A DNA stretch of 64,000 nt from Elusimicrobia bacterium GWC2_61_19 (GCA_001799795.1 MGUD01000018.1:2647-66646); one strand, 5' to 3'. Counted from the first letter of the stretch, positions 1-33,100 are shown. The notes: generated by a model not told the origin, from the letters alone. Numbers and translations are program-made.

Positions 1-282
1 ACTTCCGTAACCTACCAGACGCCGCTGGAAAAGCTTAAACTCGTGCCGGCCATGCTAAAGGAAGCGGTCGCCGGCCTGGAGAACGCCACCTTCGACCGGG
101 CCAACATGGCCGGGCTGGGGGATTTCTCCATAGATTTCGAAACGGTCTATTACCTGGAATCTCCGGATTACAACTTGCATATGCAGGCCCAGGAACGCCT
201 GCTGCAGGCCCTGATAGGGAAATTCGCCAAAGAAGGCATAGAGTTCGCCTATCCGACGCAGACACTTTACGTACAGAAATAA
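1..282 (+). CDS. MscS-family mechanosensitive channel, C-terminal fragment (5' end outside window)
   Basis: Frame 1 is open from nt 1 (TSVTYQTPLEKLKLVPAMLKEAV...) and runs into listed ORF 43..282. The C-terminal MscS-like pattern is present (..FSIDFETVYYLES.., ..EGIEFAYPTQTLY). Confidence 0.6.
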   Translation, partial: TSVTYQTPLEKLKLVPAMLKEAVAGLENATFDRANMAGLGDFSIDFETVYYLESPDYNLHMQAQERLLQALIGKFAKEGIEFAYPTQTLYVQK

Positions 283-297
283 GCAACGGAGGGAATT

Positions 298-1155
298 ATG
301 AAAAGAACCATATTAGCGGCCGCCCTGCTGGCGGTATTCGCCGGCGGCCTTTACGCCGCCGAGAAAGAAGTAGCCGTGGTCAACGGGCGGAAAATAGCCC
401 GCGAAGACCTGACCAAGAAACTCTGGTGGCAGTACGGGGCCCAGGGCCTTTCCGAACTCATAGACGAGCGGCTGCTGCTGGCGGAGGCCGCGCGCCTCGG
501 CGTAAAAGCCGACCCGAAGGAGGCCCAGGAGCGCTACAACAGCCTGTCCGCCGGTTACCCCGACAAGGCCCAGTTCGAGGCCAACCTGAAGTCCGTGGGC
601 TGGACCCCCGCCGACCTGCGCGCCCTTATCGACCGCCAGCTGACCATCCGCGCCACGGTGATAGCCGCCAGGAAACTGGCCGTCACGGACGCCGACGCCA
701 GGGACTTCTTCGACAAGAACAAAGAGCGCCTGGCCACCCCCGAGTCGCTGAAACTCAGCCAGATCTTCGTGAACACCAAAGCAGAAGCGGACGACGCCTA
801 CGAACTGCTGACCTCCGTCGGAGCGGACTTCGCCAAGCTCTCCAGCCTAAAGTCCACCGACGCCAACCTCAAGAAGAACAACGGCAGCCTGGGCTATATC
901 TCCAAGGGCATGCTGCTGCCCGAGATAGAGAAGGAAATATTCTCCCTGAAAGCCGGGCAGTACAGCAAAGTCCTGCCCACCGGCAACGGCTTCAGCATTT
1001 TCAAGGTGGAAGAGCGCAAACCGGGCCAGGACGCCTCGTTCGACAAGGTGAAAGACGAGCTCAAGGTCGCCCTGCTCAACCAGGCCGTCACCAAAGCCCT
1101 GCCCGAGCTGGCCGCGGAACTGCGCCAGAAGGCCAAGATAGAAATTATAAAGTAA
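298..1155 (+). CDS. Exported parvulin-type peptidyl-prolyl cis-trans isomerase (SurA/PrsA-like)
   Basis: GGAGGG lies just upstream of the ATG. Signal peptide MKRTILAAALLAVFAGGLYAA. C-terminal rotamase pattern GSLGYISKGMLLPEIEKEIFSLKAGQYSKVLPTGNGFSIFKVEE. Confidence 0.8.
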   Translation: MKRTILAAALLAVFAGGLYAAEKEVAVVNGRKIAREDLTKKLWWQYGAQGLSELIDERLLLAEAARLGVKADPKEAQERYNSLSAGYPDKAQFEANLKSVGWTPADLRALIDRQLTIRATVIAARKLAVTDADARDFFDKNKERLATPESLKLSQIFVNTKAEADDAYELLTSVGADFAKLSSLKSTDANLKKNNGSLGYISKGMLLPEIEKEIFSLKAGQYSKVLPTGNGFSIFKVEERKPGQDASFDKVKDELKVALLNQAVTKALPELAAELRQKAKIEIIK

Positions 1156-1178
1156 CTTAAGCCGAAGCGAAAAAAGAG

Positions 1179-1214
1179 AAGGCGGGCCGGATATTCCGGC
1201 CCGCCTTTCTTTTT
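1179..1214. terminator. Bidirectional intrinsic terminator between convergent genes
   Basis: 12-bp stem aaggcgggccgg/ccggcccgcctt with loop atatt. It is flanked by an A-run upstream and tctttttt downstream. Confidence 0.7.
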
Positions 1215-1228
1215 ACCCGCTTGGCTTT

Positions 1229-1969
1229 TTACGCGGCTTCCTCGGTGGAAACTTCCTTCTTACCCTTAGTGAAGAACGAGTGAGCTATGAAGTATATCAC
1301 CATGGCCGCCAGAATGACCTGGCTGGCGTAGAAATACTTGGCCGCGGAGTAGGTGTACAGGTCGTCGAAGCGCCCGTACAACAGCGAGAACCGGGCCATG
1401 ACGGTATTACCGAAGGCCGCGCCGAAGTAGACCATCAGGAAGTAGATGCCCACATTGGAGACTTTTTTAAGGTGGCCTTTATGCTCCACCGAGAAGAAGA
1501 AGTAGAAGAGCACGCAGATAGTACCGCCCGCCACCAGCAACGACCCGAAAATATTGAACGGGGTCATGGAAGCCAGCATGGAGAACGGCTTTATGGTGCC
1601 GCCTATCTGGCTGATGAAGTCCGTGGAAAGGCCGGCCGGGATGGCCAGGCCGGAGCCGTAGCCCATCATGAACGTGAAGCCGTAGCGGGAGATCCAGGAG
1701 ATCTTGGGGATGAACTGGGTCAGCAGTGAAATACCCAGGATGGAGGGGATTATCACCAGCATCTCGCCGTTGGAGACGGGTTCCCAGATCTTCGGCAGCC
1801 ACACGTTCGTGACCGACACCTGGAACAGCCAGCCCATGCCGGCGCCCAGGTACAGGTGCTCGGCGATCTTAAAGAACGGGTTGTCCTTGTAAAGGAAGCT
1901 GAAGAGGAAGATAGTGAGTCCCGCCGACACCCAACCGCCGATAATAAGCCATGTTTCTGACATAATCAC
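1229..1969 (-). CDS. Polytopic inner-membrane protein, unknown function (membrane module gene 4)
   Basis: The listed ORF starts at GTG 1969; ATG at 1963, preceded by GAGGTG, is the likelier start. Several hydrophobic helices. It begins 18 nt after the upstream gene. No family recognised. Confidence 0.7.
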   Translation of the reverse strand: MIMSETWLIIGGWVSAGLTIFLFSFLYKDNPFFKIAEHLYLGAGMGWLFQVSVTNVWLPKIWEPVSNGEMLVIIPSILGISLLTQFIPKISWISRYGFTFMMGYGSGLAIPAGLSTDFISQIGGTIKPFSMLASMTPFNIFGSLLVAGGTICVLFYFFFSVEHKGHLKKVSNVGIYFLMVYFGAAFGNTVMARFSLLYGRFDDLYTYSAAKYFYASQVILAAMVIYFIAHSFFTKGKKEVSTEEAA

Positions 1970-1987
1970 CTCAAGAGAAAGTTGTTA

Positions 1988-2812
1988 TCAAAAATATTTA
2001 ATGAACAGCAGAATGATGTTGGAAGTCAGGATAAGCACCAGCACCAGCAGGTGCGCCAGGTTAAGCGCGTCGATCCCGGAAGTGCCTTTGCCCGGCTGCT
2101 TGATGAGCGACTCGTACTCCGCCGCGCCCTTCATGCCGCCTATAAGGCCTTTCAACTGATTGGTCTGCAGGTAGGGCCCGTAGCCCGGCTGGCTGATGGC
2201 TGTAACGCCGCCGGCCACCGGCACGCTGTACTTGTCGCCGACGTAAGCCACCCAGTAATCCAGCAGCGCGGTACCGGTAACGCTTACGATAAGGGCCATA
2301 TCCTTATAGTTCTTCACGCCCTTCATGACGGGCATATCTTTGATGGGGGCACCGTTGCGGTCCTTGGCGTAAATACCGTAGAGGTCCGAAGACATCTGCG
2401 TCATGACCGCCAGCACATTGGGCTGGTACGGGAAAATAACATAATCCTGCCCGTCCGTTTTATTGTATTCCTTGGGGACCTTGGCGAAGACCTCTTCTAT
2501 CAGGCCCGTGGAGCCGGCTATATAGGTAACCACGCCCACGCGCAGGTTCCGGCTGAAGGCGTGCCGCACCAGCGCCATGGCCATAGGATGCAGTTCAGGC
2601 CTGGTCGAGGGGTCGTAGTCGAGCGATAAAAGCACGAAAGACCCGACGGGCAGTTTCTCGATATTATCGTAGACCCGGCGGGTGGCGGGGGAGATGGTCT
2701 TATTGGGCAGGCCGATAGGCTTCATTATCGGGACGAACAGCGTGACCGCCAGCAGCAGGAAGATCCAGCGCCTGTCTATCTTGAAGAATTTCTGAAGTTG
2801 TTCCTTGAGCAT
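1988..2812 (-). CDS. Bitopic membrane protein with large soluble middle domain, unknown function (module gene 3)
   Basis: N-terminal TM (WIFLLLAVTLFVPIM) and C-terminal TM (LLVLVLILTSNIILLFI) flank a ~220-aa domain. The start lies 3 nt after the upstream stop. Confidence 0.7.
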   Translation of the reverse strand: MLKEQLQKFFKIDRRWIFLLLAVTLFVPIMKPIGLPNKTISPATRRVYDNIEKLPVGSFVLLSLDYDPSTRPELHPMAMALVRHAFSRNLRVGVVTYIAGSTGLIEEVFAKVPKEYNKTDGQDYVIFPYQPNVLAVMTQMSSDLYGIYAKDRNGAPIKDMPVMKGVKNYKDMALIVSVTGTALLDYWVAYVGDKYSVPVAGGVTAISQPGYGPYLQTNQLKGLIGGMKGAAEYESLIKQPGKGTSGIDALNLAHLLVLVLILTSNIILLFIKYF

Positions 2813-2815
2813 GGC

Positions 2816-3484
2816 TTAATCCTTCCCCATATACTGTTTTTCGATGCCGAAGATTATTTTAAGCGAGGTCACGATAGCGCCGATGGAGATGCCTATCATG
2901 ATACCGCGTTTGCCGGCCACCGCGGGTACCTGCATGATCCATTCTATGACCTGGTCCACCCCGGCGCCGGTCCAGCCCAGCACCGAACTCCAGATTATCT
3001 GGCCCAGCGGAACTTTGCCGAGTATCAGGATGAAAGCCGCCACGAACAACACGAAAGCCTGCAGTGATTTTATCCTGAACGACCTGTAAGCGGTGGAAAC
3101 GATGTAGAAGGCCAGCACCGCGAACATGGTGCCCGAGAGGGCATTGTAGATGAACTTGAACGACCAGCCCAGCGGGGTCAGGCCGGCGTCGGTCATCTGC
3201 TTACCGTGGCTCAGGTAGGCGGGCAGCACCATGGCCAGGAAGCCCACGAACACGAAGACGCTGTAGCCCCAGCCGTCGGCGTGCCTCTTGATCTTATTGT
3301 AGTGCGAGAAGAACAGGCTGATGAGCCCCAGCAGAAAAGCGAAAGCGACCACGATATTTTCCCACTGGCTCAGGGTCTCGATGTAATTAACCGAGACCTT
3401 GTTGGGGACATAATAAGACACCAGTGTAAGAACACCGGTCACCATCACGATGGCTAAAGGTATATGTTTTTTTATCAGTTTCAT
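2816..3484 (-). CDS. Polytopic inner-membrane protein, unknown function (module gene 2)
   Basis: Multi-TM ORF separated by 3 nt from the upstream gene. No family recognised. Confidence 0.7.
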   Translation of the reverse strand: MKLIKKHIPLAIVMVTGVLTLVSYYVPNKVSVNYIETLSQWENIVVAFAFLLGLISLFFSHYNKIKRHADGWGYSVFVFVGFLAMVLPAYLSHGKQMTDAGLTPLGWSFKFIYNALSGTMFAVLAFYIVSTAYRSFRIKSLQAFVLFVAAFILILGKVPLGQIIWSSVLGWTGAGVDQVIEWIMQVPAVAGKRGIMIGISIGAIVTSLKIIFGIEKQYMGKD

Positions 3485-3487
3485 AAA

Positions 3488-4732
3488 TTAATAGCCTTTG
3501 AACAGGTGGAGCAGGCCGGCCACGAAATTGGTCCAGCCGAACTTCGCCCCCAGGACCACCAGGATCATGCCGAAGAAAGCCGAGACCATCACTATAAGCT
3601 TGCCGAAGTCCTGCACCTTGAGGGCGCTGAGCAGCATGGGCTCCTTGGACAGGTAGGCCCCCGCGGCGTAGAGTTCCTCGCCGATAAGCGTATAGTCGCA
3701 GGCCGTGAAGAAGAAAGGCAACTGGTGCTCCACGTCGGTGCCGGCGATCTGGATGGCGCCCGAGGTGGCGCCGACTTCGGCCAGCAGCAGGGATTCGGCC
3801 ATGAAGTAACCCATATAGAAACAGGCGGCCGGTTTTTCGCGCGAGATCATACCGTCTACCGAGGCCGCGTAAGAGAACTGGTCGGCGCTGACGAACTGGT
3901 TGACGTCCTCGCGGTAGGAATCCGGGCGGCCGGCTTCCAGGTAGGACTGCTTGACTATCTCCTTGCAGACGGTCATGACTATGGGGTCGTAATGCGGCAC
4001 TTTTATCTGGGAATCGTACTGGGCGACCTTTTTAGAAACCTCGCCCAGGATGAAAGCGGAGGCGATGGTGGAAATGGAGCTCATGGAGCCGATACCGGGC
4101 ACATAGAAGATGGGCTTGCCCATCTCGGTGGCGCGGCCGATGGCCTCGTCTATGGCGTCCAGACCCGCTATGCGGCGGATGAACAGGCCTTTGCGCTTGG
4201 CGTGCGACACCGCCCAGAAAAAGATAACGATGAGCACGATGAGCAGGATGAGGTTGTTGAGGCGGTCGAGGCGGAACCAGTTGCCCACCGGGGTCACGGC
4301 CACGGGCAGCGACTCCGCTATTACTTTCTTGCCTTTTTCGGCCGCCACTTTGAACTGAAAAACAGAGGCGGGCAGGCTCTCGCCGAAAAGGTTATTGAGC
4401 TCGACTTTTACCGCGTGCTCGTCGGCGGAACCGTTCCAGGCCCAGAAAGGCAGGTCGATATCCTTGCCGGTCCTGGCGTCGAAGGCGAACCTGTCGGCCT
4501 CCAGCCAGCCGCCGGTCTGAAGAGAAGAAGCGTAAACCACGTAAACAGTATCGGGGGTATCGGCGGGGTTCACCGGCCATCTGAGGACGGCCGCGTTGCC
4601 GACGTCGTAGGGCATGTCCCCGGCGGTGAAGCCGTTCAGGACCGCCGCGGCGGGGGCCGGTTTAGCGGCAAAAACGCTGCCGGCGGCAAAGAGCATTAAA
4701 ACAATAAGGGGGATCACTTTGGTTTTAATCAT
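3488..4732 (-). CDS. Signal-peptide protein with exported beta-rich domain, TM segments and a conserved-looking GLDAIDEAIGRATEMGKPIFYVPG domain; unknown function (module gene 1)
   Basis: Signal peptide MIKTKVIPLIVLMLFAAGSVFA. A ~130-aa exported domain is followed by a TM helix (LILLIVLIVIFFWAV), a ~200-aa domain and C-terminal TM helices. Confidence 0.7.
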   Translation of the reverse strand: MIKTKVIPLIVLMLFAAGSVFAAKPAPAAAVLNGFTAGDMPYDVGNAAVLRWPVNPADTPDTVYVVYASSLQTGGWLEADRFAFDARTGKDIDLPFWAWNGSADEHAVKVELNNLFGESLPASVFQFKVAAEKGKKVIAESLPVAVTPVGNWFRLDRLNNLILLIVLIVIFFWAVSHAKRKGLFIRRIAGLDAIDEAIGRATEMGKPIFYVPGIGSMSSISTIASAFILGEVSKKVAQYDSQIKVPHYDPIVMTVCKEIVKQSYLEAGRPDSYREDVNQFVSADQFSYAASVDGMISREKPAACFYMGYFMAESLLLAEVGATSGAIQIAGTDVEHQLPFFFTACDYTLIGEELYAAGAYLSKEPMLLSALKVQDFGKLIVMVSAFFGMILVVLGAKFGWTNFVAGLLHLFKGY

Positions 4733-4743
4733 AACTGTCTAAT

Positions 4744-4772
4744 AATATACACTTTATGGATTTTCCAGGCAA
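4744..4772 (-). promoter_or_regulatory. Candidate sigma70-type promoter for the four-gene membrane module
   Basis: On the minus strand: TTGCCT (4772..4767), 17-nt spacer, TATATT (4749..4744). ATG at 4732 is 11 nt downstream with no SD. The gap is AT-rich in a GC-rich region. Confidence 0.4.
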
Positions 4773-4781
4773 GGTCAAATG

Positions 4782-6542
4782 TCAGTTCTCCAGCAAATAG
4801 CTGGACACCCCGGCCCGCGAAGGCCCTGAGCTCAGGAATCTCTTTATCGCCGCGACGTGTTTCTGCATACCGGCCTTGTTCATATTTTCAAAAACGGCCT
4901 CTCTTGCCGCGCGGCTGATGTTTTTGGGCCAGAGCAGGTAAAGGGTGGCGGGGGCGCTGCCTTCTCCCTCATAGCGAAAAACTTTCATCAGTCTGTAAGG
5001 CTCAAGGAGAGAATCCAGCTGTTTGGCCGTAACATGCCATTGCGAGTACAAGTCCCTGTCCGCAAGGACATCTCCCGTCATGTACACGGGGACGGCCTGT
5101 GCATAGTAACGCGCGAGGCTGGCGCGCAGCTGCGCGACCGGGTCTTTTTTGTCCGCGTAGGCGTTCAGGATAGCCAGCTGGATGGAGATCCTTTTACGGT
5201 TGGAGAAATACGGGAGATAGACCTTCAACGCCCCGCCGGAGATCAGGACGGGGCTGTCCGGGTAGGTAAAGTGCGCGACCGCTTCGCAAAACCCGATGGC
5301 CGGCTTGACCTGCTTACCCAGATAATTAGGCACGATAAGCCGGAAGAAATTATTGCCGGCCAGAAGACCGACGAAGAGAAACCCGGCCGCGGGTAAAAAG
5401 CGGGCCTTCAGCGCCCGGACGCGCGCCTGGAACAGCGCCGCCAGCAGCCCGCAGCAGAGCGCGACATTGGTGGACCAGTAAATAGTGTTGGCCGGCTGCC
5501 AGACGGAGTACAGCAGCAGGAACAACGCGAAAGGCAGGCCGAAGGCGGCCGCGAGCGGCGCGCTTTCGGGTGTAAGGAGGGGGCGCTTTTTATCGCCGGA
5601 AGACGCGCTGAAGGCGGCCATGGCCGACAGGAGGAGCGCCGCGGCGGCGAGTACGGCCGCCGCTGATCCGCCGGTAAAGTAGAAAAAAGACAGGAGCAGG
5701 TTCTTTACCGGCAACAGTATGTGGGCGGGGATATTCAGGTCGAACTGCCCCAGGGGATTGCTCTCGGGTGAAACTCCGTTCACAAGCCCCGAACCCCACT
5801 GCCACCAGCGCGCCAAGCCGCCCCTGACAAAAAAACCGTGTATACCGGCGTAAGGCAGGAAGAAAACCAGGAATATGCCGGACAAAATACCGGCCTGCCT
5901 GAGGACCTCCTTGCGGTGATATAACAGCGCGGCAGCCGCGGCGGCCCAGAGGATATTATTGGCGATATGGAAACCGGAGGCCAGGCCGGCGAAAACACAC
6001 AGCCAGGTGAAAGCGGCCAGGGAAAATTCCCGGAAATACCTGTAGAGCGCCGCGCAGAAAAGAACGGTGAACAGCGTCCCGGCCAGGTACGGCTCCGCCC
6101 CGGTGGAGCGGCTCCAATACACATTGCTGACGCCGGCCAGCAGCGTCCAGAACAGCGCCGGCCGCCTGGAAAGGAGCCCGTTAAGAATGGCGAAGAAGAA
6201 GGCCAGGCCAAGCGCGCCGGCGGCCGCGTTGAACCACTGGATGGCCTCATAGGTCAGGCCGCCGAAGCCCAGGGCCCGGATTAGCACGTAGAAAAAGCGC
6301 GTGGCGGGGTACCAGAGGAAATGGTTCCATTCGAATATGACGGAGAGTTCGTTGAGGCCGAGAGGCGCCCTGATGATGCCGGCGTACAGGACCGAATCAT
6401 AAAAATACGAGTGGTCGAAAGTTACGGAATAAAGGAGCAGGAAAGCTATAAAAACGAAGACCGGGTCGGAGACCGCCTGAGGAACGGAACCGGAAATTAT
6501 CTCTTTAAACCGGCCACCGCCGGGGTTGGACTCCATAAGCAC
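4782..6542 (-). CDS. GT-C-like (ArnT/PMT/DUF2723-like) polytopic membrane glycosyltransferase, putative
   Basis: More than 10 hydrophobic helices plus a ~170-aa soluble C-terminal domain. Loop motif DHSYFYDSVLYAG after TM1. The listed start is GTG; ATG at 6536 is an alternative. Assigned by architecture only. Confidence 0.5.
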   Translation of the reverse strand: MLMESNPGGGRFKEIISGSVPQAVSDPVFVFIAFLLLYSVTFDHSYFYDSVLYAGIIRAPLGLNELSVIFEWNHFLWYPATRFFYVLIRALGFGGLTYEAIQWFNAAAGALGLAFFFAILNGLLSRRPALFWTLLAGVSNVYWSRSTGAEPYLAGTLFTVLFCAALYRYFREFSLAAFTWLCVFAGLASGFHIANNILWAAAAAALLYHRKEVLRQAGILSGIFLVFFLPYAGIHGFFVRGGLARWWQWGSGLVNGVSPESNPLGQFDLNIPAHILLPVKNLLLSFFYFTGGSAAAVLAAAALLLSAMAAFSASSGDKKRPLLTPESAPLAAAFGLPFALFLLLYSVWQPANTIYWSTNVALCCGLLAALFQARVRALKARFLPAAGFLFVGLLAGNNFFRLIVPNYLGKQVKPAIGFCEAVAHFTYPDSPVLISGGALKVYLPYFSNRKRISIQLAILNAYADKKDPVAQLRASLARYYAQAVPVYMTGDVLADRDLYSQWHVTAKQLDSLLEPYRLMKVFRYEGEGSAPATLYLLWPKNISRAAREAVFENMNKAGMQKHVAAIKRFLSSGPSRAGVSSYLLEN

Positions 6543-6565
6543 CCTTTCACTTAGCGCCCTAAGTC

Positions 6566-8725
6566 TTATTTCGCACCTATGTACCGGACGATGACTTCCC
6601 GCATGATGTTGAAAGCAGGGGAGACCCCGGGAGGGAGTTTAGACACAAGTTCATAAACGGCCACGCGGTTGACGGGACGGCCGTTGTCCATCTCTTCGTG
6701 GGCGTACACTTCCACTACGTGCTTATCCCAGAAGGCATCGTAGATCCCGCGGGCCCGGGCGTCCCAGTAGAACATATTGTAGGCCTTGCCCAGCCTTATG
6801 CCTTCGGCTGGATTCAGCAGCAGATGCGTTATTCCCTCGGCTTTCAGGCGCGAGTAAAGTTCCTCGCCCGTTTTGGCGGCGGCGGCGTACTCCACTATCG
6901 GGGTTTTGTCGAAAACGGAACTTACCATGAAATCTTTCCTGAAGTACGAACCGCGGGCGTCCCCTATAATCAGCGTTTTGGCGCCGGGCGGCAGTTTATA
7001 ATTGATGAACTGAATGGCCCCATAATGGCTGTAAGGGTAGGTGGGTTCGGTGACGGCCAGGTAAGCATCCTTGTCCACAAGGCCGAACACCGGCCGCCAG
7101 CGGCCCTGTGAATACAATATGAGGCCGGCCCAGTACACCCCGAAAGCGCAGGAGAACAGCGTCAGGATAGCGAGCGTTTTGCGCAGGAGCCTGTGCTGGC
7201 GGGCGTCGAGCGCCGCGGCTATCAGCAGGGCCGCCGCCGGGTAGACGGGCATCAGGAAGCGCACCATGGTGGAGGCGAAGGACCACAGCAGCCAGCCGCA
7301 GAGGAAATAGAGCCAGAACGGCGGCGTGCCCGCCGGCTGCAACAGGAACAGCAGCGGCAGCATGACCAGGAACAGAGGCGTGAAATAATTAGAATTGGGC
7401 AGGGCGCCCATCGTGACGTTCCACGGGTGCAGCAACCAGGCCTTCGGTTCCAGGGCGCTCATCTGCCGCGTTTCCACCATAAAGCCGCGCAGTTTATCCG
7501 GGTCCGCCCCGGACAGCCCGAAGACGGACGTCAGGAAGGGAAAGAAGGGATTGCCGCGGTACAGCCAATTCTTGGCCAGCCAGGGCAGCACCGGCAGGGC
7601 GGCCACGCCCGCGAACACCAGGGCAGCGCGCAGGGCGTTAGCGCGGTCGGCCCGCGCGCGCCAGAGCAGGACCAGGCCGGTGCCCACGGCCGGGAACAGG
7701 CCGGTGGTCTTTACCGCCATGCCGCAGCCGGAAAGAAAAGCCGCCAGCAGCAAAAAACGGTATTCTCCGGGCTCGTGGCGCAGGGCGGCGGCGAGCGCGC
7801 AGACCGAGAACAGGGTAAGCAGGTCTTCCGTGCCGGAGGACCAGGAGGCCATCATCGCCTGCGCTACGGTGTAGAAGATCAGCCCGGCCCAGAGGCCGGC
7901 GCGCAGCGTGAAATGCCGGCGGCCGATGCCGACTACGGCTACCAGGCTCAGGACCCCGGCCGCGTAGTTCAGCAGTTTGGGCACCATCTCGTCCTTAAGC
8001 AGCAGGCCGGCGGAATAGAGCATGCCGTGCAGCAGGAAGAGGTTGGAATACAGGTTATACGGCATGTCCGAGATACCATGCTTTATCGTATAGAAACTGG
8101 GCACGGCCAGGTGATAGACCAGAGAATCGTAAAAGATCTCGGGGCTGAGCGCGCCGATGAGGTTGAGCAGCAGCGCCGCGGCCAGCAGGGCCATGGCGAG
8201 CAGGTCGGGGAACTCCGGCCTGAAAGCGGGGGCGGGGGCTTCCGGGGGGATGGGATAATGTTTTCTGGAAAGCGCTCCCAGCGCCAGCGAAACCCCCAGG
8301 ACCAGGTATACCGGCCCCCTGTAAAGGAAACCGCAGGCGGCCAGAACAAGTATCAGGTGCCCTACGGCACCGAACCCCAGCGCTACCGAGAAAGCCGACT
8401 CTTCGCAGGCCGTCATGCGCCCGGGGTTAAGCGCGGCGGCCAGCAGGAACCTGCCCAGGCCGGCGCAGGCCAGGACAAAGAACAGGCCGGACAGCAGCGC
8501 GGAAAAATGTCCGGGCAGGGCCTTGAACAGGGCGGCGCTGAAATACTGCCCCGGCGAAAGGACGACAAAAAGCGAATTGAGATCGGGGGGATAATGCGAG
8601 AGGTAGGTCTTAAGGACCCAGCCGCCCCAGAGCAGGAAAGCGCCCCAGGCCAGCCAGGCCGGGAACCGGGGCGGCTCTGGCGCGGCAGGCGGAACGGCGG
8701 CGGCGTTTTTACGTTTTTTTGCCAT
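6566..8725 (-). CDS. GT-C-like polytopic membrane glycosyltransferase, putative (paralog of 4782..6542)
   Basis: 719 aa with many TM helices and a soluble C-terminal domain. It shares the motif SPEIFYDSLVYHL with its neighbour. Assigned by architecture only. Confidence 0.5.
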   Translation of the reverse strand: MAKKRKNAAAVPPAAPEPPRFPAWLAWGAFLLWGGWVLKTYLSHYPPDLNSLFVVLSPGQYFSAALFKALPGHFSALLSGLFFVLACAGLGRFLLAAALNPGRMTACEESAFSVALGFGAVGHLILVLAACGFLYRGPVYLVLGVSLALGALSRKHYPIPPEAPAPAFRPEFPDLLAMALLAAALLLNLIGALSPEIFYDSLVYHLAVPSFYTIKHGISDMPYNLYSNLFLLHGMLYSAGLLLKDEMVPKLLNYAAGVLSLVAVVGIGRRHFTLRAGLWAGLIFYTVAQAMMASWSSGTEDLLTLFSVCALAAALRHEPGEYRFLLLAAFLSGCGMAVKTTGLFPAVGTGLVLLWRARADRANALRAALVFAGVAALPVLPWLAKNWLYRGNPFFPFLTSVFGLSGADPDKLRGFMVETRQMSALEPKAWLLHPWNVTMGALPNSNYFTPLFLVMLPLLFLLQPAGTPPFWLYFLCGWLLWSFASTMVRFLMPVYPAAALLIAAALDARQHRLLRKTLAILTLFSCAFGVYWAGLILYSQGRWRPVFGLVDKDAYLAVTEPTYPYSHYGAIQFINYKLPPGAKTLIIGDARGSYFRKDFMVSSVFDKTPIVEYAAAAKTGEELYSRLKAEGITHLLLNPAEGIRLGKAYNMFYWDARARGIYDAFWDKHVVEVYAHEEMDNGRPVNRVAVYELVSKLPPGVSPAFNIMREVIVRYIGAK

Positions 8726-8768
8726 TAAACAAAAGCGGCCGCGCGGCGGGTTACCGGCGCAGGCCGCT
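8726..8768 (-). terminator. Intrinsic-terminator-like GC hairpin plus U-tract abutting the ATG of the 719-aa gene
   Basis: On the minus strand, stem agcggcc..ggccgct (8768..8734, with inner GC pairs) is followed by TTTTGTTTA and then ATG at 8725. Confidence 0.45.
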
Positions 8769-8779
8769 CGTAGGTCAGG

Positions 8780-9904
8780 TTACTTCTCCAGCACTTCTAT
8801 ATTGGCGCGGGGGACCACTATCACCTCGCCGCCGTCGAGCGTAACTTCCAGCACGCGGGCGTGGGATTCGCTGCCTATCACGGTCAGTTCCGGCGGCAGG
8901 GACTTCACGGTGCCTATCACGCCGAAGTGGGGCTCGCGGATTATGCGGATAGGGTCGCCGGGTTCTATCCAGCCGCGGCCCTGGTCCTTCTTGCACTCGG
9001 TCACGTTCTTGGGGAAGCCGGGCACGATGATCTCCGGGCGCATGACGCCGGCGCGGATCTGCGTAGCGCCGGAAACGGAGGCGTTCTCCCCGTTGCGCGA
9101 CGAGATCAGTTTAAAAGTATACTCGGCCATCGGGATCGCGCCGAAGCCTTCGGTCACGATCACGGTAACGCCCAGCTGCTCGTTGCCGGTCACCGCCACG
9201 CCGATGTCGTAGCCCAGGAGTTCGCGCAGGTCGCGGTCGTGGATGCCGCCCACCACTATGGCGTTAACGCCCATCTCGACGGCGCGCTTGATGGTGGCGA
9301 GGCTCGCGTGCCTGCCGCCTATGACGATCTTGCCCTTGTGTATTTCCTTGATGGCCTCCGGCTGAAGGTCCTCGTCGGGGCTGGCCACGGCCACGGCTAT
9401 TTCGCCGTTGGTCTCGCCGCCCACGCCGAAGATGCCCTGGATGAAGGTGCCTTCGGCCTCTATGGCGACGCCGAAATTGGGGGTAACCTCCACCACTTTG
9501 CCTTTTACGTAGGCCTTAATGGGCAGCACTTTCGGGGGCTCGCGCAGCAGCACCTGGCCGGTTATAAAGGAGACGCTTTCCACGGTGCCGCTTACCGGCG
9601 ACTCCACGGAGGTCTTGAACCACTTCAGGAAGGGTTTGTTCTCGGCGAGGATCTCGCCCTGCTTCACGGCCTCGCCCTCTTTCTTGAGCATATAGCCCTG
9701 TATTTCTTCCGGGCCCACGGAAAGGCGGTTCGCGACGTTCACGGAGAAGACCTTGCCGGGCAGTTCGGTCTGGGCCACGATGTCCAGCGAATCTACCTGC
9801 TGCCCCAGGGCGGCCAGCACCTTGCCGGGGATGGGCAGCAGCCTCTTCTTCACCAGCCGTGTGCAGGGCATTACTTTAAGTCCGGGTGTATACGCGTGTG
9901 CCAT
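8780..9904 (-). CDS. Barrel-sandwich-hybrid (lipoyl/RnfC-N-like) domain protein, unknown function
   Basis: AAGGAGA SD. The pattern EGEAVKQGEILAEN...VESPVSGTVESV is present, but there is no MKM biotin motif. Gly-rich segment KGKIVIGGRHASLATIKRAVEMGVNAIVVGG. Confidence 0.6.
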   Translation of the reverse strand: MAHAYTPGLKVMPCTRLVKKRLLPIPGKVLAALGQQVDSLDIVAQTELPGKVFSVNVANRLSVGPEEIQGYMLKKEGEAVKQGEILAENKPFLKWFKTSVESPVSGTVESVSFITGQVLLREPPKVLPIKAYVKGKVVEVTPNFGVAIEAEGTFIQGIFGVGGETNGEIAVAVASPDEDLQPEAIKEIHKGKIVIGGRHASLATIKRAVEMGVNAIVVGGIHDRDLRELLGYDIGVAVTGNEQLGVTVIVTEGFGAIPMAEYTFKLISSRNGENASVSGATQIRAGVMRPEIIVPGFPKNVTECKKDQGRGWIEPGDPIRIIREPHFGVIGTVKSLPPELTVIGSESHARVLEVTLDGGEVIVVPRANIEVLEK

Positions 9905-9926
9905 AAATTATCTCCTTGTGGTCGTA

Positions 9927-11720
9927 CTAGAGAGGATACATCGACATCGCTTTGTACCACTTGTTCAGGTCGTCGCGGCGCTTGGACGGGTCCTTCGCCA
10001 GGTTGAAGGGGCGGCCGCGCCCGTCCAGCACCAGGCCCACCACGCCGCCCTCGATATCGGCTTCCACGCGGTTGCCGGAACCGGCGCCCATGTCGAAGCC
10101 CTTCACCGGCTTGGCCACGAGTTTGGCTTTGGGAGCGGCGAACGGCACATGGATGATGTCGCCGAAGCGCAGTTCTCCGGCCTGCCGGCTGCCGTCGGAG
10201 CCGGTAACTTCCCACTCCATTATAAGCTGGCCTTCCTTGGCCAGGCCCTTGGGGGCCAGGCAGGTGCCCATCCGCACAAGGCAGTCGTGGTAGAACACGT
10301 CCAGCGCGGCCTTCTCGCTGATCTGCGCCAGCACGCCCAGGTGCGGCATCATGAAGATGGAGTCCACGGCCATGCGGGTGACGCCTTCGGGCTGGTAGGC
10401 GTCTATCATCATCAGCATGGACTGGGTGCGGCGGGGGGAATGCGCCAGAATGCCGCCCGAACCTATCACGTAGTCGAGCCGCATCACGTTGATGAGGCTG
10501 GCCCCGGAAGAGGTCTGGTCGAAAGCGTCCGAGATGGAGCGCTCCTGCTGCACGCCCTTGAGCCCGACGGCCAGCGCCTTGTGCTGGTCGAAAGCCAGGC
10601 GCAGCGCCTCGCGCGAGACGGCATGCTCGATCTGCAGGTCCTCCACCGTCTGGGGGATGGTGGTGGGGCGGATCATTTTGTTCTTCAGGCGGTTTCTGAG
10701 GTCCTGCTCTTCGATGTCGAAAGGCAGCCAGCGCAGGATGTTCGCCAGGCCCGCCTCCGCCATGACATTGGAGATGGAGTAGCTCATACCCAGGTTGGCG
10801 CTGACGGTGCGGTTGAAGACTTCGGAGAACACGGAGAACACGTCGGTGGTGGCGCCGCCGATGTCCACGGCCAGGACGTTGAATTTATTGGCCTTGGCGA
10901 ATTTTTCCGTCATGGTGCCTACCGCGGCCGGCGTGGGCATGATGGGCGCGCCCACCATCTTCATCAGGCGCGGGTAGCCGGGGGCCTGCTGCATCACGTG
11001 CTCGAGGAAAATGTCGTGGATCTTGTGGCGGGCCGGCATCAGGTTCTCGCGCTCCAGGCTGGGGCGCAGGTTCTCGGTTATGATCAGGGCGGTGGTGTCG
11101 CCGAGGATCGCCTTGATCTGGTCGTGCGCCTTGTTGTTGCCGGCGTAGATCACCGGCAGCTTGTAGGAGGCGCCGAGGCGCGGCTTGGGGTCGGCCGCCT
11201 TCAGGAACTGGGCCAGTTCCACCACGTGCGTGATGGTGCCGCCGTCGGTGCCGCCGGAAAGCAGCATCATGTCCGGGCGCAGCTGGCGGATGCGCTCGAT
11301 CTTCTCGTGGTCCGCGCGGCCGTCGTTAGAGGCCAGCACGTCCATCACGATGGCGCCCGCGCCGAGCGCGCAGCGCTGGGCGGATTCGCCGGTCATGGCC
11401 TTCACCGCGCCGGCCACCATCATCTGCAGGCCGCCGCCGGCCGAGGAGGTGGAGACGTAAATATCGGCGCCCACATTGCCGTTGTTCGGGGTTATTATCC
11501 GTTCGCCGTCGAGGATCTTGCGGCCGGAGAGCTCCTCCACCTCGGTGATGGAGTTGAGCACGCCCTTGGTGACGTCTTCAAAAGGGGCTTCCACAGTGGT
11601 GGGGGCTTCGCCGCGGAAAGTCTGGCGGTAGGTGTCGCCTTTCTTTTCGATAAGGATGGCTTTCGTGGTGGTACTGCCGCAGTCGGTGGCTATTATGACT
11701 TCAAGGTCTTTGTTGGACAT
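9927..11720 (-). CDS. GlmL/MutL-family ASKHA-fold ATPase (glutamate-mutase-L-like), orphan
   Basis: AAGGAGAG SD. Phosphate-binding motifs IATDCGSTTTKAIL and VLAVDIGGATTDVF. Family assignment is from memory of GlmL/MutL-like proteins. Confidence 0.65.
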   Translation of the reverse strand: MSNKDLEVIIATDCGSTTTKAILIEKKGDTYRQTFRGEAPTTVEAPFEDVTKGVLNSITEVEELSGRKILDGERIITPNNGNVGADIYVSTSSAGGGLQMMVAGAVKAMTGESAQRCALGAGAIVMDVLASNDGRADHEKIERIRQLRPDMMLLSGGTDGGTITHVVELAQFLKAADPKPRLGASYKLPVIYAGNNKAHDQIKAILGDTTALIITENLRPSLERENLMPARHKIHDIFLEHVMQQAPGYPRLMKMVGAPIMPTPAAVGTMTEKFAKANKFNVLAVDIGGATTDVFSVFSEVFNRTVSANLGMSYSISNVMAEAGLANILRWLPFDIEEQDLRNRLKNKMIRPTTIPQTVEDLQIEHAVSREALRLAFDQHKALAVGLKGVQQERSISDAFDQTSSGASLINVMRLDYVIGSGGILAHSPRRTQSMLMMIDAYQPEGVTRMAVDSIFMMPHLGVLAQISEKAALDVFYHDCLVRMGTCLAPKGLAKEGQLIMEWEVTGSDGSRQAGELRFGDIIHVPFAAPKAKLVAKPVKGFDMGAGSGNRVEADIEGGVVGLVLDGRGRPFNLAKDPSKRRDDLNKWYKAMSMYPL

Positions 11721-11741
11721 GTGGCTCTCCTTGGAATACCG

Positions 11742-12056
11742 TCAGATCTTCTTTTCAGCGTCCGCTCCCAGCCGCTCCGTCAGATAGGCGACGGCCTTGG
11801 GATTCTCCAGCAGCTTGGCATACCTGCTGACTTCTTCTTTCTGAAAAACCATGCTGAGCATCGGGCCCAGGAAAACCACGCCCTGCGCGCCCAGGTTATG
11901 CAGGGGCCTGGTGCTCTCCAGCGCCAGGGCGGCCATGTCGCCCATCTTTCTGGCCCGGACCTTGTCGGCGAGGGCGTCCAGAAGTTTTTTTTCCTCTTCC
12001 GTCGCCTCCGGCGGTTCGGGGAGTTTAAAAGCGTTGTCCCAGATTCCCATGCGCAT
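11742..12056 (-). CDS. Small acidic/helical hypothetical protein, first gene of the ASKHA trio
   Basis: 104-aa ORF, 21 nt upstream of the ASKHA gene. The in-frame ATG at 12050 may be the true (leaderless) start. No family recognised. Confidence 0.5.
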   Translation of the reverse strand: MRMGIWDNAFKLPEPPEATEEEKKLLDALADKVRARKMGDMAALALESTRPLHNLGAQGVVFLGPMLSMVFQKEEVSRYAKLLENPKAVAYLTERLGADAEKKI

Positions 12057-12058
12057 TT

Positions 12059-12122
12059 ATTTTACAATATTTAATACGGCGCAACGCGGATTCGGGCCGA
12101 CCGCCGCATTATATTGTAAAAT
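12059..12122. promoter_or_regulatory. Divergent promoter region with 12-bp inverted repeat, each arm carrying TGTAAAAT
   Basis: attttacaatat (12059..12070) and atattgtaaaat (12111..12122) are reverse complements. Each arm supplies a TAAAAT -10 box facing outward. Confidence 0.45.
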
Positions 12123-12144
12123 TATACCGTAACAGGACAAAGAT

Positions 12145-12672
12145 ATGGACCCGAACAACAGGACAAAACTTCCAGGCGGCCTCAGCCCGGCCGCCCTGCT
12201 TATCTTGGGCGTCGTCCTGACCGCCGCCATCATCCTGGGCATTAAGTTCCTGATGGGGAACGACTCCGAAGGGGCGCCGCCGTCCGCGGCGAAGGACGCC
12301 ATTTTCAGGGACGAGACGGACCACACTAACGCGCCCGGCTACAATCCCGCCGTCCTCCCGGAAAACCCCGGCGGGGATTCGCTCTCCATGTTCAAGAAGA
12401 CCAACGCCGGGTACGCGGCAGACGAATCCTCCGCCACGGACAAAGAGGAACAGGCCGGCCCGAAAACCGCTAAAAAGACGGCCGCGGTGAAAAAACAGGC
12501 CGCCAAAACCCCGCAAAAAAGCCGGCAGCGCACGGTGATCCCGCGCATGCAGGGGGCGAAACCTTTCGGCTCGGCGACGCCGGCCAGGCAGGGCCTGCCG
12601 GGCGGCGCCGGGATGCCGGACATCTCCGACATAATGAAGCAGGCCCAGCAGAAGCCGCAGAGCGGCGACTAA
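12145..12672 (+). CDS. Membrane-anchored low-complexity (Pro/Ala/Lys-rich) protein
   Basis: AGGA lies 7 nt upstream of the ATG. Single TM helix (AALLILGVVLTAAIILGIKFL), then a disordered-looking tail. Confidence 0.55.
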   Translation: MDPNNRTKLPGGLSPAALLILGVVLTAAIILGIKFLMGNDSEGAPPSAAKDAIFRDETDHTNAPGYNPAVLPENPGGDSLSMFKKTNAGYAADESSATDKEEQAGPKTAKKTAAVKKQAAKTPQKSRQRTVIPRMQGAKPFGSATPARQGLPGGAGMPDISDIMKQAQQKPQSGD

Positions 12673-13142
12673 AAATAACGGGGGAAGGAAATTCTAATTT
12701 TCGAGCCGGGCCTGACCCGGTGCGCGCGGGCCGAACCCGCCGGCAGCTCCAGCACCAGGCTGGCGGGCGCCACGGCGCGCGCCACCTCGTCTTCCGGCTG
12801 GTCCGGCCTTGACCGGGGCACCCGGTGAAAGACCCGCAGCACTTTCAGGTCCGCGTCCAGAAAGACCATGTCCAGATCTATGAGGGTATTCTTCATCCAG
12901 AAAGATTTAACCCCGCCGCTGCCGAACACGAACAGCATGCCGCGGCCGGGTGGCAGCGAGGTGCGGAACATCAGGCCCTTGGCCTGGGCCTCGGGGGTGA
13001 GCGCCAGCTCCACGCGGACCGCGGCGCCGTCGGGCAGCGTCAGGACGGCCTCGCGCGCGCCGGACGGCACCCGCAGCGCCTGGACCCCGGCGCAAAGGCC
13101 CAGCAGCAAAGCGGCGGCGATAAATTTATTTCTTTTCGGCAT
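12669..13142 (-). CDS. DUF192 family exported protein
   Basis: Signal peptide, then GLMFRTSLPPGRGMLFVF...FWMKNTLIDLDMVFLD, which is typical of DUF192. Confidence 0.75.
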   Translation of the reverse strand: MPKRNKFIAAALLLGLCAGVQALRVPSGAREAVLTLPDGAAVRVELALTPEAQAKGLMFRTSLPPGRGMLFVFGSGGVKSFWMKNTLIDLDMVFLDADLKVLRVFHRVPRSRPDQPEDEVARAVAPASLVLELPAGSARAHRVRPGSKIRISFPRYF

Positions 13143-29477: not shown

Positions 29478-29551
29478 GCGGGCGTCGTACAATGGTAGTA
29501 CGAGTGCTTCCCAAGCATTAAACGTGGGTTCGATTCCCATCGCCCGCTCCA
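29478..29551 (+). tRNA. tRNA-Gly (anticodon CCC), CCA encoded
   Basis: Cloverleaf by eye: acceptor GCGGGCG/CGCCCGC, D stem GUAC/GUAC, anticodon stem AGUGC/GCAUU with loop UUCCCAA, T arm GUGGG-UUCGAUU-CCCAU, and a 3' UCCA. Confidence 0.9.
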
Positions 29552-30126: not shown

Positions 30127-33100
30127 ATGAATTTCAGAAAGGTCCTTCCTATATCGCTGTTCGCCCTGGCCTTGTTAGCGCCGGGAGCTGGCGCGCTTGC
30201 CACCGGCCGCCACGGCCATACCACCACCCTGCTGCCTGACGGCAATATCCTGGTAGCCGGCGGCACCACCGGCGCCGCCAACGTCTCCCTCAACAGCGTC
30301 GAGATCTATTTCACTTCCGCGGCCGCTTTCGGCGCGGCCCCCAACATGCCGGCCTCCCTGTCCTCCCACACCGCCACGCTCATGGGCAACGGTATGGTCC
30401 TGGTAGCGGGCGGTTTCACCAACGGCGTCCCGGTAAACTCCGCCGCGATCTATAACCCGCTGACAAAAACCTGGACGCCTGTAACCGCCACCCTGGCCTC
30501 GACGAGGGGGGGACATACCGCCACCCTGCTTAATAAAGGCGCCAGTTCCGGAAAAGTCCTTATCTGCGGCGGGCAGACCGCGAGCGAAACTTCCATAACC
30601 AACACCTGCGAGGTTTTCACCCCGAACGTCACCCCGGCGCTCGGTAATTTCGCCTCGGTCCAGGCCATGAGCAGCGAACGCATGGGCCACTCCGCCAGCG
30701 CCATAGCCGGCGGCCGCGTATTCGTATCGGGCGGGCGCCGTTGGGACGCCGTCGCCTCCACCTTCACCTACCTGTCCACCAACGAGATCTACGACCCCGA
30801 GAACTACCAGTGGCAGACCGTAACGGCCCTTACCACCGGACGCACCGACCATTCCGCCGTGGTACTCAACAACGGCACCATCCTCATCTCCGGAGGGTAC
30901 AACGGCATCGACAAGCTGGACACAGCGGAAGAGGGCTGGTATAAAACCCCGCTGGGCAGCGCATCCAACCAGAACGCAGGCAGCAAAGGTTTCCTGGACA
31001 GCGCCGAGATCTTCGACTCTTACGGCGGCAGGGTGCCGGTCTCCGGCTCCGACTACCAGGTGATGCCTTACAGGAACTCGAAACACGCCGCCGCCCTCTC
31101 CCCGGACGGCAAGCAGCACATGTACGGCGGCTACGGCAATATCCCGCCCAAATTTTTCTTCGCCATCCCGACCATGGAAACCGGCTCGCAACTGGACACC
31201 ACAAAGACCAATATAACCACCGCCAGGGTGAACACCAGCAGCATCCTCCGGTACCTGCTGGACATCAATCTCTCCAGGCCCGTGGACGGCCGCCTCGTCG
31301 ACGCGGATATCTTTATCTCGCGGGCGGTGGACGGGCCTTCCCTCAGCGTCTCTAACGCGTCCATTTATATCGACGGGCCGAGCACCGCCACCGTGGACGG
31401 CTTTACGGTCGGCCTGATGGTCCCCGGCGTGGCACCGGGAGAGTTCAGGGACATAGTGCAGCCGCAGAACCCGACCGGCACCGTCAGCTTCGCCCCGGTC
31501 GGGGTCGCCTCCATCGACACCTACGCGACCTCCGGCTCGCTGGTCTTCTCGATCACCCCGATCCCGGTCGGGAATCCGCCCGTCCCGCTGACGGCGGGCT
31601 CCGTGCTGACCATTCCCGTCACCATCGAAGTCTCCCCGACCTACGTCGGAGGCATCATCAGCGGCACAATGACGATAACCGGCGCGTCGATATCCGACAA
31701 CCTTGGCTACTGGCTGGCCTCCCTGACCGGCGGCACGGGGGAATTCACCAGCGGCGCGGTAACCTACGACGCCTTCACGGGGATGGGCGTGGCCTCCGGC
31801 AACGTGGCCTTTTCAGCCCTCACCGGTACTATCATAAATTCGACAACTACCGCGATAGTGTCCAGCCCGCTGGCCACTACCGCCAGCGACCCCGTGACCT
31901 CCGTATCACTGCGGGCCTATTACACCTCCACCAGGATAGACCTTTCAGACCTGCAGTATGCCATAAGCATATCCACATTCGTCGTCCGGGAAATGATATT
32001 CTCCGACAACCTGGAGTACAGCCCGGATAAGGCCAAATGGCAGTTCGGACAGGTACTCTACCCGGTCTTCAACCTGTCGGCCCTGGTCACCCCCGGCGCG
32101 GACACGGCCATCATAGGCGGCAGGAACTGCGAACTGATCCCGTCCGCACACTGCAAGCGCGCGGCCCTGGCCCCGGTTTTCACCGCCTCCAATATCTCCG
32201 GGGCGTTCATCTCCCAGAACCATTCAACTTGGTCCAAAAGCGGAAAACTCGCCAACAAGCGCGCCTTTCATACCAGCACCCTGCTGCCGGACGACGGGAT
32301 ACTTACCTGCGGCGGCTCCGACGGCACAGCCACGCTGGCCACCTGCGAAATGTTCTACCCGGCGGAACAAGAGTGGAGGCCGGCCGGGACCATGAATTAC
32401 CCGCGCTCCAGGCACACCGCCACGCTGCTGCCCAACGGCCGCGTGCTGGCGGCCGGCGGTGCCATAAACTCCTCTACCCATGCCGTAACTTACGCGGAGA
32501 TCTACTACCCGGACACCGACAAATGGCTGCCGACGAACTCAATGGCTTTCGCCCGCACGAACCATACCGCCACGCTGCTGCCGGACGGCAACGTGCTGAT
32601 GGCCGGCGGTGATACGATAAACGGCTACTCGGCGACCTCCGAGATCTACCTTACCACCAGTTCGGTCTGGCTGACCGCCGGCGCCCTGGCGAACGGCGGC
32701 AGGGCCCAGCACACGGCCACGCTGCTTAAGAGCGGCAACGTGCTGATAGCCGGCGGCATAAACGGCAACGGCGCCATAAAGACCACGGAAGTGTATAATT
32801 TCGCGACGCGCACCTGGACCGACACCGGCGACGACCTGCAGGTAAAGCGCTACGCGCACGCCGCGAACCTGCTGATGGACGGCCGCGTTATGGTCACCGG
32901 CGGCACCGACGGCTACGGCCCGATGGACACCGCCGAGGTTTACGACGGGTTAAGCTGGAAACTCACCACCCAGCTGGGGGGCAACAACATGCTCGCCCGC
33001 CGCACAGGCCACCGTTCCACCCTGCTGCCCAACGGCAAGGTCCTGATCACCGGCGGTGAGGCCCCGGGCATCGCCTACTCTCTGGTAGAAGGCTACGACG

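Follow-up and report, generated by a model that had tools for sequence, protein, structure and literature searches.

An undescribed seven-gene ATPase and membrane-protein core, shared by about a dozen bacterial phyla, surrounds a lineage-specific insert in an Elusimicrobia genome

Introduction

GlmL (MutL) is an accessory protein of the coenzyme-B12-dependent glutamate/methylaspartate mutase. A protein that matches the corresponding Pfam family (PF13941) over its whole core and keeps the ASKHA motifs is encoded by the second gene of a nine-gene block (g1 to g9) of Elusimicrobia bacterium GWC2_61_19, a groundwater metagenome-assembled genome (MAG) from which a stretch of 64,000 nucleotides (nt; the window) was analysed. 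This protein, g2, falls under the NCBIfam cut-offs for GlmL proper and differs from it in length, having about 120 extra residues at the C-terminus. Its constant neighbours are g1, g3 and usually g6 to g9, rather than glmS/glmE or the ornithine/lysine aminomutase genes. No match to mutase subunits was found beside g2 with phmmer, and no mutase gene is annotated in the loci examined, the neighbours in which are partly annotated. Given the sub-threshold scores and the lack of mutase genes alongside, g2 was rejected as GlmL proper. Here we show that g1 to g3 and g6 to g9 form the core of an undescribed, phylogenetically broad system across about a dozen bacterial phyla, and that g4 and g5 are not part of it.

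Distant similarity also links g2 to the hydantoinase/oxoprolinase-type enzymes (HyuA, 5-oxoprolinase and the acetone carboxylase beta subunit), with which it shares the ATP-binding ASKHA fold. However, no HyuB-like partner is present here, and the barrel-sandwich-hybrid (BSH) and KOW architecture of g3 is without a known enzyme relative; nor do we know these enzymes to associate with a membrane complex of four proteins. The predicted layout of the core, in which an ATPase in the cytoplasm goes with polytopic subunits and with domains in the periplasm, is shared with ABC systems of the mechanotransmission type (MacB, LolCDE and FtsEX) and with the Opp importers, to which the core is also linked by gene order. 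In contrast to these machines, the core ATPase has the ASKHA and not the ABC fold, an ABC signature is absent, and g7 and g9 are unrelated to OppB/C (hhalign probability <1%). The N-terminal BSH domain of g3 is shared with NqrA of Na+-NQR and RnfC of Rnf, as weak profile matches, but g3 has neither a whole-fold match to them nor a redox cofactor motif, and its membrane partners bear no relation to theirs. Finally, g4 and g5 may be likened to the GT-C glycosyltransferases of the PMT/ArnT type (GT39/GT83-like), both being polytopic, with a large C-terminal soluble part and an acidic FYDS motif after a transmembrane (TM) helix. Their matches to these enzymes are below or near thresholds, with no relative in the PDB, and neither protein belongs to the conserved system.

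Pfam recognises only g2 (MutL) and g6 (DUF6754) in the core; the five other core proteins have no family, and these two are in families of unknown function. That the block holds a candidate undescribed system made of an ATPase and a membrane complex had been proposed by a sequence-only reading of the window, and it is supported here. No family-level match for the core was found in the PDB or PADLOC; searches of PMC and bioRxiv with the family names gave no relevant literature. Among the PADLOC defence models, the sole match was a negligible one of ThsA to g7 (E = 0.0097), and an anti-phage defence system was rejected for want of a component match. We know of no system in which an ASKHA ATPase is paired with a membrane complex of this kind.

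Conservation of the core

The best 80 genome loci anchored on g6 come from Elusimicrobiota, Nitrospirota, anammox Planctomycetota, Methylomirabilota, Latescibacterota, Gemmatimonadota, WOR-3, Poribacteria, Sumerlaeota/BRC1, Binatia, Myxococcota, Ignavibacteriales and Edwardsbacteria. Antisense shadow open reading frames (ORFs) in the GC-rich loci (families F6, F7, F18 and F27) were disregarded. In 66 of the 67 testable loci, g6 is followed contiguously by g7, g8 and g9. Upstream of g6, the same strand carries both g2 and g3 in 45 of 60 testable loci from at least eight phyla: Nitrospirota (24/25), Elusimicrobiota (6/6), Latescibacterota (6/6), Gemmatimonadota (2/2), Sumerlaeota/BRC1 (2/2), anammox Planctomycetota (2/3), Binatia (1/1) and Methylomirabilota (NC10; 1/1). 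In all of these loci, g3 and g6 overlap or are separated by less than about 100 nt, the Elusimicrobia close to the window excepted. In a reciprocal scan of metagenome contigs, anchored on g3, 56 of 62 testable loci had g2 upstream, and 30 of 42 had g6 to g9 downstream. A permuted order, g6-g9-g1-g2-g3, is seen in one locus (L086).

The sequence-only reading had suggested up to three sub-clusters in the block, which might or might not act together. Two of them, g1-g3 and g6-g9, are conserved together and directly adjacent in most phyla; the third, g4-g5, is not conserved with them. This pattern makes the conserved entity a seven-gene system of two modules, and the block as a whole is very probably a composite of this core and a lineage-specific insert.

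One full seven-gene cluster (L041, CAYTVL010000026.1) is labelled 'uncultured Enterobacteriaceae', while its similarity values are like those of Nitrospirota and Binatia; an error of binning or classification may lie behind the label. DUF6754 is absent from 72,556 plasmids, and a mobile or plasmid-borne element was rejected on that count.

The cytoplasmic module

The small protein g1 has no match in Pfam or NCBIfam. With jackhmmer it was found in 48 loci, almost always directly upstream of g2.

The assignment of g2 as a GlmL/MutL-like ASKHA ATPase, made earlier from the sequence, is upheld by its match to Pfam MutL (PF13941; E = 5e-127, 424.8 bits against a cut-off of 27), in which residues 9-479 align to positions 1-449 of the 450 in the model. 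Scores against the NCBIfam GlmL equivalog/subfamily models remain below their cut-offs (231.3 against 475 bits for NF040745 and 164.4 against 204.05 bits for TIGR01319). The C-terminal extension is conserved and specific to the subfamily. Between Elusimicrobia and the at least seven other phyla sampled, g2 is 64-68% identical, with a mean column identity of 72%. Its ASKHA motifs are intact and invariant across phyla: phosphate-1 (D13-K20), phosphate-2 (D286-D293) and adenosine (G420-G423). A fainter match is to Hydantoinase_A (E = 7.5e-5), and sequence and profile searches of the PDB returned no relative of g2 with a solved structure.

In g3, the BSH domain that had been noticed from the sequence alone appears both in weak Pfam matches to NqrA_N and RnfC_N (E = 0.0016, below the cut-off) and in an AlphaFold2 model with a mean predicted local distance difference test score (pLDDT) of 84; like that of g6, this model was built on an alignment of Elusimicrobia sequences only. 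It consists of the barrel-sandwich hybrid, a beta-barrel, an alpha/beta domain and a C-terminal KOW-like barrel. Foldseek searches of the PDB with the model gave only matches to single domains (KOW, BSH and PA-like), among them the KOW domain of NusG/Spt5, BCCP, BesA and the ectodomain of ZNRF3, and a profile search of the PDB matched only the KOW domain. Across phyla g3 is 48-57% identical, with a mean column identity of 60%, and its N-terminus, MAHAYTPGL, is nearly invariant. A catalytic motif was not recognised. We count the very high conservation of the g2 and g3 alignments as a sign of a stoichiometric complex.

In two metagenome loci (L135:4266-11119 and L152:3885-10750), a paralogous g2'-g3' pair lies upstream of g1-g2-g3, and the g3' copy has an additional N-terminal BSH-like region.

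The membrane module

Hydropathy agrees with the earlier view of g6 to g9 as membrane proteins. The best-characterised of them, g6, has a full-length match to DUF6754 (PF20539) at residues 150-397 (372 bits, E = 1e-111). In its AlphaFold2 model (pLDDT 71), a signal peptide and a predicted periplasmic FN3-like domain are linked through a TM helix to a predicted cytoplasmic alpha/beta domain, and further TM helices lie at the C-terminus; in Foldseek it matches FN3 domains through the N-terminal domain only, and longer g6 homologues contain fn3 repeats. The DUF6754 domain is about 50-60% identical, with 21 invariant columns in 54 diverse sequences, and the family comprises 2138 cluster representatives at 50% identity. 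It is encoded in at least 588 species-level genomes.

About six TM helices are predicted for g7 and about five to six for g9. In g8, N- and C-terminal TM helices enclose a soluble domain of about 220 residues, which is conserved across phyla and is probably periplasmic. Scanning 23-26 cross-phylum homologues of g7, g8 and g9 at E <= 1 gave no consistent Pfam family, and for g8, as for g2, g4, g5 and g6, sequence and profile searches of the PDB gave no relative. The gaps of 3 nt between g6 and g7 and between g7 and g8 suggest that the products form a stoichiometric membrane complex.

Several relationships were considered and rejected. Cryptic OppB/C permeases are not hidden in g7 and g9 (hhalign probability 0.5%, and no Pfam BPD_transp_1 match); g7 and g9 are not paralogues of each other (hhalign probability <1%); and homology of the cytoplasmic alpha/beta domain of g6 with the periplasmic one of g8 was likewise rejected.

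Duplications also occur in this module. One locus (L064:9572-16603) contains two tandem g6-g9 sets, and two others (L053 and L054, around 11430-13527) have two g8 paralogues.

Genes inserted between g3 and g6

Both insert proteins are polytopic, with about ten hydrophobic segments in g4 and about eight in g5, followed in each by a hydrophilic C-terminus of about 180-200 residues. The two share no significant similarity, yet a FYDS(L/V)(V/L)Y motif follows a TM helix in each. The proposal that they are GT-C-like holds for g4 only by way of its family: g4 itself has no Pfam match, while four of six family members match PMT_2 (best E = 4.5e-8) or PMT (2.6e-6), with TMEM260-like matches as well. 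Against the NCBIfam family LIC_10190, g4 scores 34.9 bits (E = 7e-9), where the cut-off is 100. For g5 there is one weak Pfam match, to PMT_2 (E = 0.003, 18 bits against a cut-off of 26). Both are tentatively considered probable GT-C proteins of the PMT-like kind. Searches of the PDB found no sequence relative of either.

Among the 80 genome loci, g4 occurs in six, all from close Elusimicrobia, and it was met again in two metagenome loci of the g3-anchored scan (L084 and L133). Within the 80 genome loci, no copies other than the window's own carry g5; among 5.8 billion sequences, only eight protein clusters match it, the farthest at 33% identity. In Elusimicrobia, the slot between g3 and g6 may be empty (L010, L011) or hold g4 (L004-L006), g4 and g5 (the window), g4 and a complete OppABCDF operon (L008, L009) or OppABCDF alone (L007). 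The inserted length in the Elusimicrobia close to the window is 1.8-8.6 kilobases. Since g4 and g5 are restricted to a few Elusimicrobia, and the same slot holds Opp genes in sister genomes, the glycosyltransferase component is lineage-specific cargo, from which what the conserved system does cannot be defined. The recurrence of g4 in the same slot does make a local functional link in Elusimicrobia possible.

An internal hairpin and a promoter had been thought to set off the middle sub-unit of the block, and both sit exactly on its borders. The hairpin, directly after the g3 stop codon, is followed by UUUUGUUU. A strong GC hairpin 3' of g3 is present in the g4-carrying window, L004, L006 and L009, and none was seen in the loci examined where g3 adjoins g6; the hairpin and the promoter-like site thus mark the edges of a cassette. 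The promoter-like site before g6 may restore expression of g6 to g9.

A different element fills the g3-g6 spacer of Nitrospira (L020:9792-9928 and L026:7782-7870). Units of GGGGUGAG and GGCGUAAG make it up as a purine-rich G-tract repeat, in which no hairpin is predicted; it could form G-quadruplexes or provide multiple Shine-Dalgarno-like sites.

Association with Opp-type importers and other neighbours

Opp-type genes, coding for a family-5 substrate-binding protein (SBP), BPD_transp_1 permeases and OppD/F ATPases with an oligo_HPY domain, adjoin or interrupt the core in at least six arrangements. One is that of a Latescibacterota chromosome (OZ240239.1; L073:2568-15630), where g1-g2-OppA-OppB-OppC-g3-g6-g7-g8-g9-OppD-OppF are co-directional. 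Elsewhere, g9 is followed by OppD-F (L053, L054, L056 and L074) or, in Sumerlaeota, by OppA-D-F (L067); OppA precedes g1 (L070, L072 and L075); Opp genes lie between g3, or g4, and g6 (L007-L009); or Opp-like ABC-importer genes, with matches to OppB, OppC and the ATPase, are found downstream of g3 (L086). In L073 and L007, OppB/C are genuine, separate genes. This recurrent interleaving suggests a peptide-type substrate pathway.

Other neighbours are specific to lineages. In several phyla they include PD40/peptidase-MA-like proteins, one of which, of about 1200 residues, follows OppF in L073. A SusC-like TonB-dependent receptor and a class IV aminotransferase are also among them. A Memo-like (PF01875) gene stands directly after g9 in 28 of 28 Nitrospirota loci (for example L020:13903-15189) and in no other phylum sampled. 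In a Nitrospirota locus without g1-g3 (L013:13468-16443), genes for a PilB-like (MshEN+T2SSE) and a PilT-like ATPase come directly after g9, and in a WOR-3 locus (L082) g9 is followed by a DUF4388/PATAN protein. The neighbours of loci with the four membrane genes only, or with a solitary g3, are heterogeneous (aroK/aroB, sulfatase, PilB/PilT, Wzi-like, AccA and Era) and gave no functional clue.

Layout of the block and its surroundings

The features of the window are collected in Table 1. The nine ORFs, predicted earlier as minus-strand genes with gaps of 3-54 nt, were found at the same positions, and the gaps measured from g1 to g9 (21, 22, 54, 23, 49, 3, 3 and 18 nt) agree. They are genuine genes, all except g5 with many homologues. 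The g6 gene corresponds to A2081_02310 (100% identity), and the whole block is also present on three independent metagenome contigs, with identical or near-identical products. The divergent promoter and bidirectional terminator that had been placed at its ends were both recovered, as consensus matches only. The promoter candidate sits in an 88-nt divergent spacer, and the terminator is common to the block and the convergent rotamase gene. GC content (window positions 1-13000) is about 0.61-0.65 across g1-g4 and about 0.55-0.57 across g6-g9; the lower values may result from membrane-protein composition rather than foreign origin.

Table 1. Genes and putative signals of the nine-gene block, and other features of the window (positions counted from its first nucleotide; aa, amino acids).
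Feature	Position	Strand	Description
g1	11742..12056	-	small protein, 104 aa (102 aa if ATG at 12050); opens the cytoplasmic module
g2	9927..11720	-	MutL/GlmL-family ASKHA-fold ATPase, 597 aa
g3	8780..9904	-	predicted cytoplasmic multidomain partner of g2, 374 aa
g4	6566..8725	-	polytopic, probably PMT-like (GT-C-type) membrane protein, 719 aa; lineage-specific insert
g5	4782..6542	-	polytopic, weakly PMT_2-like, 586 aa (584 aa if ATG at 6536); near-orphan insert
g6	3488..4732	-	DUF6754 protein, 414 aa
g7	2816..3484	-	polytopic membrane protein, 222 aa
g8	1988..2812	-	bitopic protein, 274 aa
g9	1229..1969	-	polytopic membrane protein, 246 aa (244 aa if ATG at 1963)
Operon promoter candidate, sigma-70-like	12113..12140	-	TTGTCC-16-TACAAT, 9/12 matches; consensus match only
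Bidirectional intrinsic terminator	1178..1208	both	14-bp GC-rich stem, 10 GC pairs, T-runs on each strand; consensus match only
GC-rich hairpin and U-tract directly 3' of the g3 stop	8733..8769	-	-26.1 kcal/mol, z = -2.5
Overlapping promoter-like sites (two hexamer pairs) between g5 and g6	4744..4778	-	TTGACC-16-TAAAGT and TTGCCT-17-TATATT; consensus matches only
Rotamase gene	298..1155	+	PpiC-type; convergent to the block
Divergent gene	12145..12672	+	175 aa; no family
tRNA-Gly(CCC)	29478..29551
Giant ORF	30127..35784	+	1885 aa

Discussion

The explanation that we favour, with an overall probability of roughly 0.5, is that the block is composite and that its core encodes an ATP-dependent, peptide-linked membrane machine of two modules. 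Module A (g1, g2 and g3) would be cytoplasmic, with g3 as the obligate multidomain partner of g2. Module B (g6 to g9) would be a four-subunit inner-membrane complex that translocates or handles the substrate. To this complex, g6 would contribute a periplasmic FN3 stalk, a TM helix and the cytoplasmic DUF6754 alpha/beta domain, g7 and g9 polytopic subunits, and g8 a doubly anchored periplasmic alpha/beta protein. Module A would dock on the cytoplasmic face of module B, most plausibly at the DUF6754 domain, and the use of ATP by g2 could drive or gate module B, or trap or process a substrate passed on to it. The substrate pathway may be peptide-related, involving peptides, muropeptides or a similar ligand of family-5 SBPs. 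The ATP-driven mechanism itself is a tentative proposal. Similarly, it is possible, although we would not count on it, that the core represents an unrecognised class of envelope machine, in which an ASKHA ATPase energises or gates a four-subunit inner-membrane complex alongside Opp-type importers.

Several points weigh against this explanation. The two modules do not always occur together: in WOR-3 (0/4), Poribacteria (0/3) and some unclassified MAGs, no g1-g3 lie within 10 kb of g6-g9, and about 12 of the 42 g3-anchored loci have g1-g3, or g3 alone, without g6-g9 at the locus. Genomes with a single module at the locus include Poribacteria OZ246979.1, OZ244616.1 and OZ241378.1 and WOR-3 CP070705.1. 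What the analysis shows is the gene content, the co-conservation, the insertion, the domain architecture and the intact ATPase motifs, whereas the association of the seven proteins in a physical complex, their topology, the coupling to ATP and the kind of substrate are inferred. The DUF6754 domain of g6, the presumed docking site, has no match in the PDB, and the pLDDT of the model is about 50-80 there. No Opp genes are present in the Nitrospirota loci sampled, so a link to peptides is not found throughout. The ASKHA ATPases related to g2, in the hydantoinase/oxoprolinase branch and among the reactivases of B12 enzymes, are soluble enzymes or chaperones, and we know of no transporter driven by an ASKHA protein.

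The main rival explanation is an uptake-and-catabolism operon, which we consider somewhat unlikely. Here, g6-g9 would be a secondary or facilitated transporter and g2/g3 a soluble ATP-dependent enzyme that acts on the compound taken up, for example one of the hydantoinase/oxoprolinase type that opens rings or phosphorylates, without contact between the two. The similarity of g2 to the hydantoinase/oxoprolinase branch (Hydantoinase_A, E = 7.5e-5) fits such an enzyme, but no catalytic motif is recognised in g3. Paralogous g2'-g3' pairs, as in L135 and L152, are typical of enzyme families; on the other hand, the 64-68% identity of g2, the nearly invariant N-terminus of g3 and its KOW/BSH architecture look more like a machine with multiple partners. 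Separation of the modules in some genomes also speaks for this explanation, and Opp genes, the SusC-like receptor, peptidase-like proteins and the class IV aminotransferase nearby in several phyla are consistent with uptake; however, the system is also found in chemolithoautotrophs (Nitrospira, anammox bacteria and NC10), and the cytoplasmic domain of g6 is highly conserved without an obvious role in transport. A function outside all the explanations considered here, favoured or rival, strikes us as fairly improbable.

An analogue of MreB-RodZ-MreCD or PilMNO is unlikely. Such a system would be cytoskeleton-like or would organise the envelope: on the membrane complex, the ASKHA protein would polymerise or serve as a scaffold, and so position envelope synthesis or surface structures. 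Although g2 has the ASKHA fold and is conserved at actin-like levels, it belongs to the MutL/hydantoinase branch and not with actin, FtsA or PilM. Bitopic and small polytopic partners with periplasmic domains would suit such a scaffold, as would envelope-related cargo and neighbours (the PMT-like glycosyltransferases, the Wzi-like protein, PilB/PilT and muropeptide-type importers), but the neighbours vary between phyla and none is universal.

The sequence-only reading had suggested an energy-dependent machine for the assembly or export of an envelope glycoconjugate or lipid. As a description of the conserved system, a single nine-gene machine of this kind with the GT-C proteins as its catalytic heart is largely refuted, and we regard it as very unlikely; at most it could hold for a lineage-specific add-on: g4 and g5 are not conserved with the other genes and their slot is variable, g4 being absent from 74 of the 80 genome loci and g5 from all but the window's own copies. 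In most phyla g3 adjoins g6, in sister genomes Opp importer genes occupy the slot, and g4-g5 lie between a terminator-like hairpin and a promoter-like site. These facts outweigh the co-orientation and tight spacing of the nine genes, the PMT_2/PMT similarity of the g4 family and the presence of g4 in the same slot of six Elusimicrobia loci and of L084 and L133.

A relative of Rnf/Nqr, translocating ions as a redox or respiratory complex with g3 as the NqrA/RnfC-like subunit and g6-g9 as counterparts of NqrB-E, was rejected as most improbable. In its favour are the weak NqrA_N/RnfC_N matches of g3 (E = 0.0016) and subunit sizes and topologies that are loosely Nqr-like. Against it, no NqrA or RnfC chain is among the 50 best Foldseek matches of the g3 model, and at E <= 1 no Rnf/Nqr Pfam family matches g6-g9 or the homologues of these proteins in other phyla. 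No motif for binding flavin, Fe-S or NADH was noticed, and the ATPase g2 has no counterpart in these complexes.

The interest of the block lies in the seven-gene core and not in the glycosyltransferases, and the block illustrates how a lineage-specific insert can mislead the prediction of function from a single genome. The ATPase of the core is conserved at the level of a housekeeping protein. The system is nearly universal in the Nitrospirota loci sampled and is present in anammox bacteria, NC10 and several candidate phyla known from metagenomes only; anammox bacteria and NC10 are drivers of the global nitrogen cycle. In known machines, the role of the ATPase is filled by ABC, AAA+, P-type or rotary proteins. 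If g2 does drive the membrane complex, a process in the cell envelope would be coupled to ATP in a new way, and the MutL/GlmL family would gain its first cellular role beyond the B12-mutase operons.

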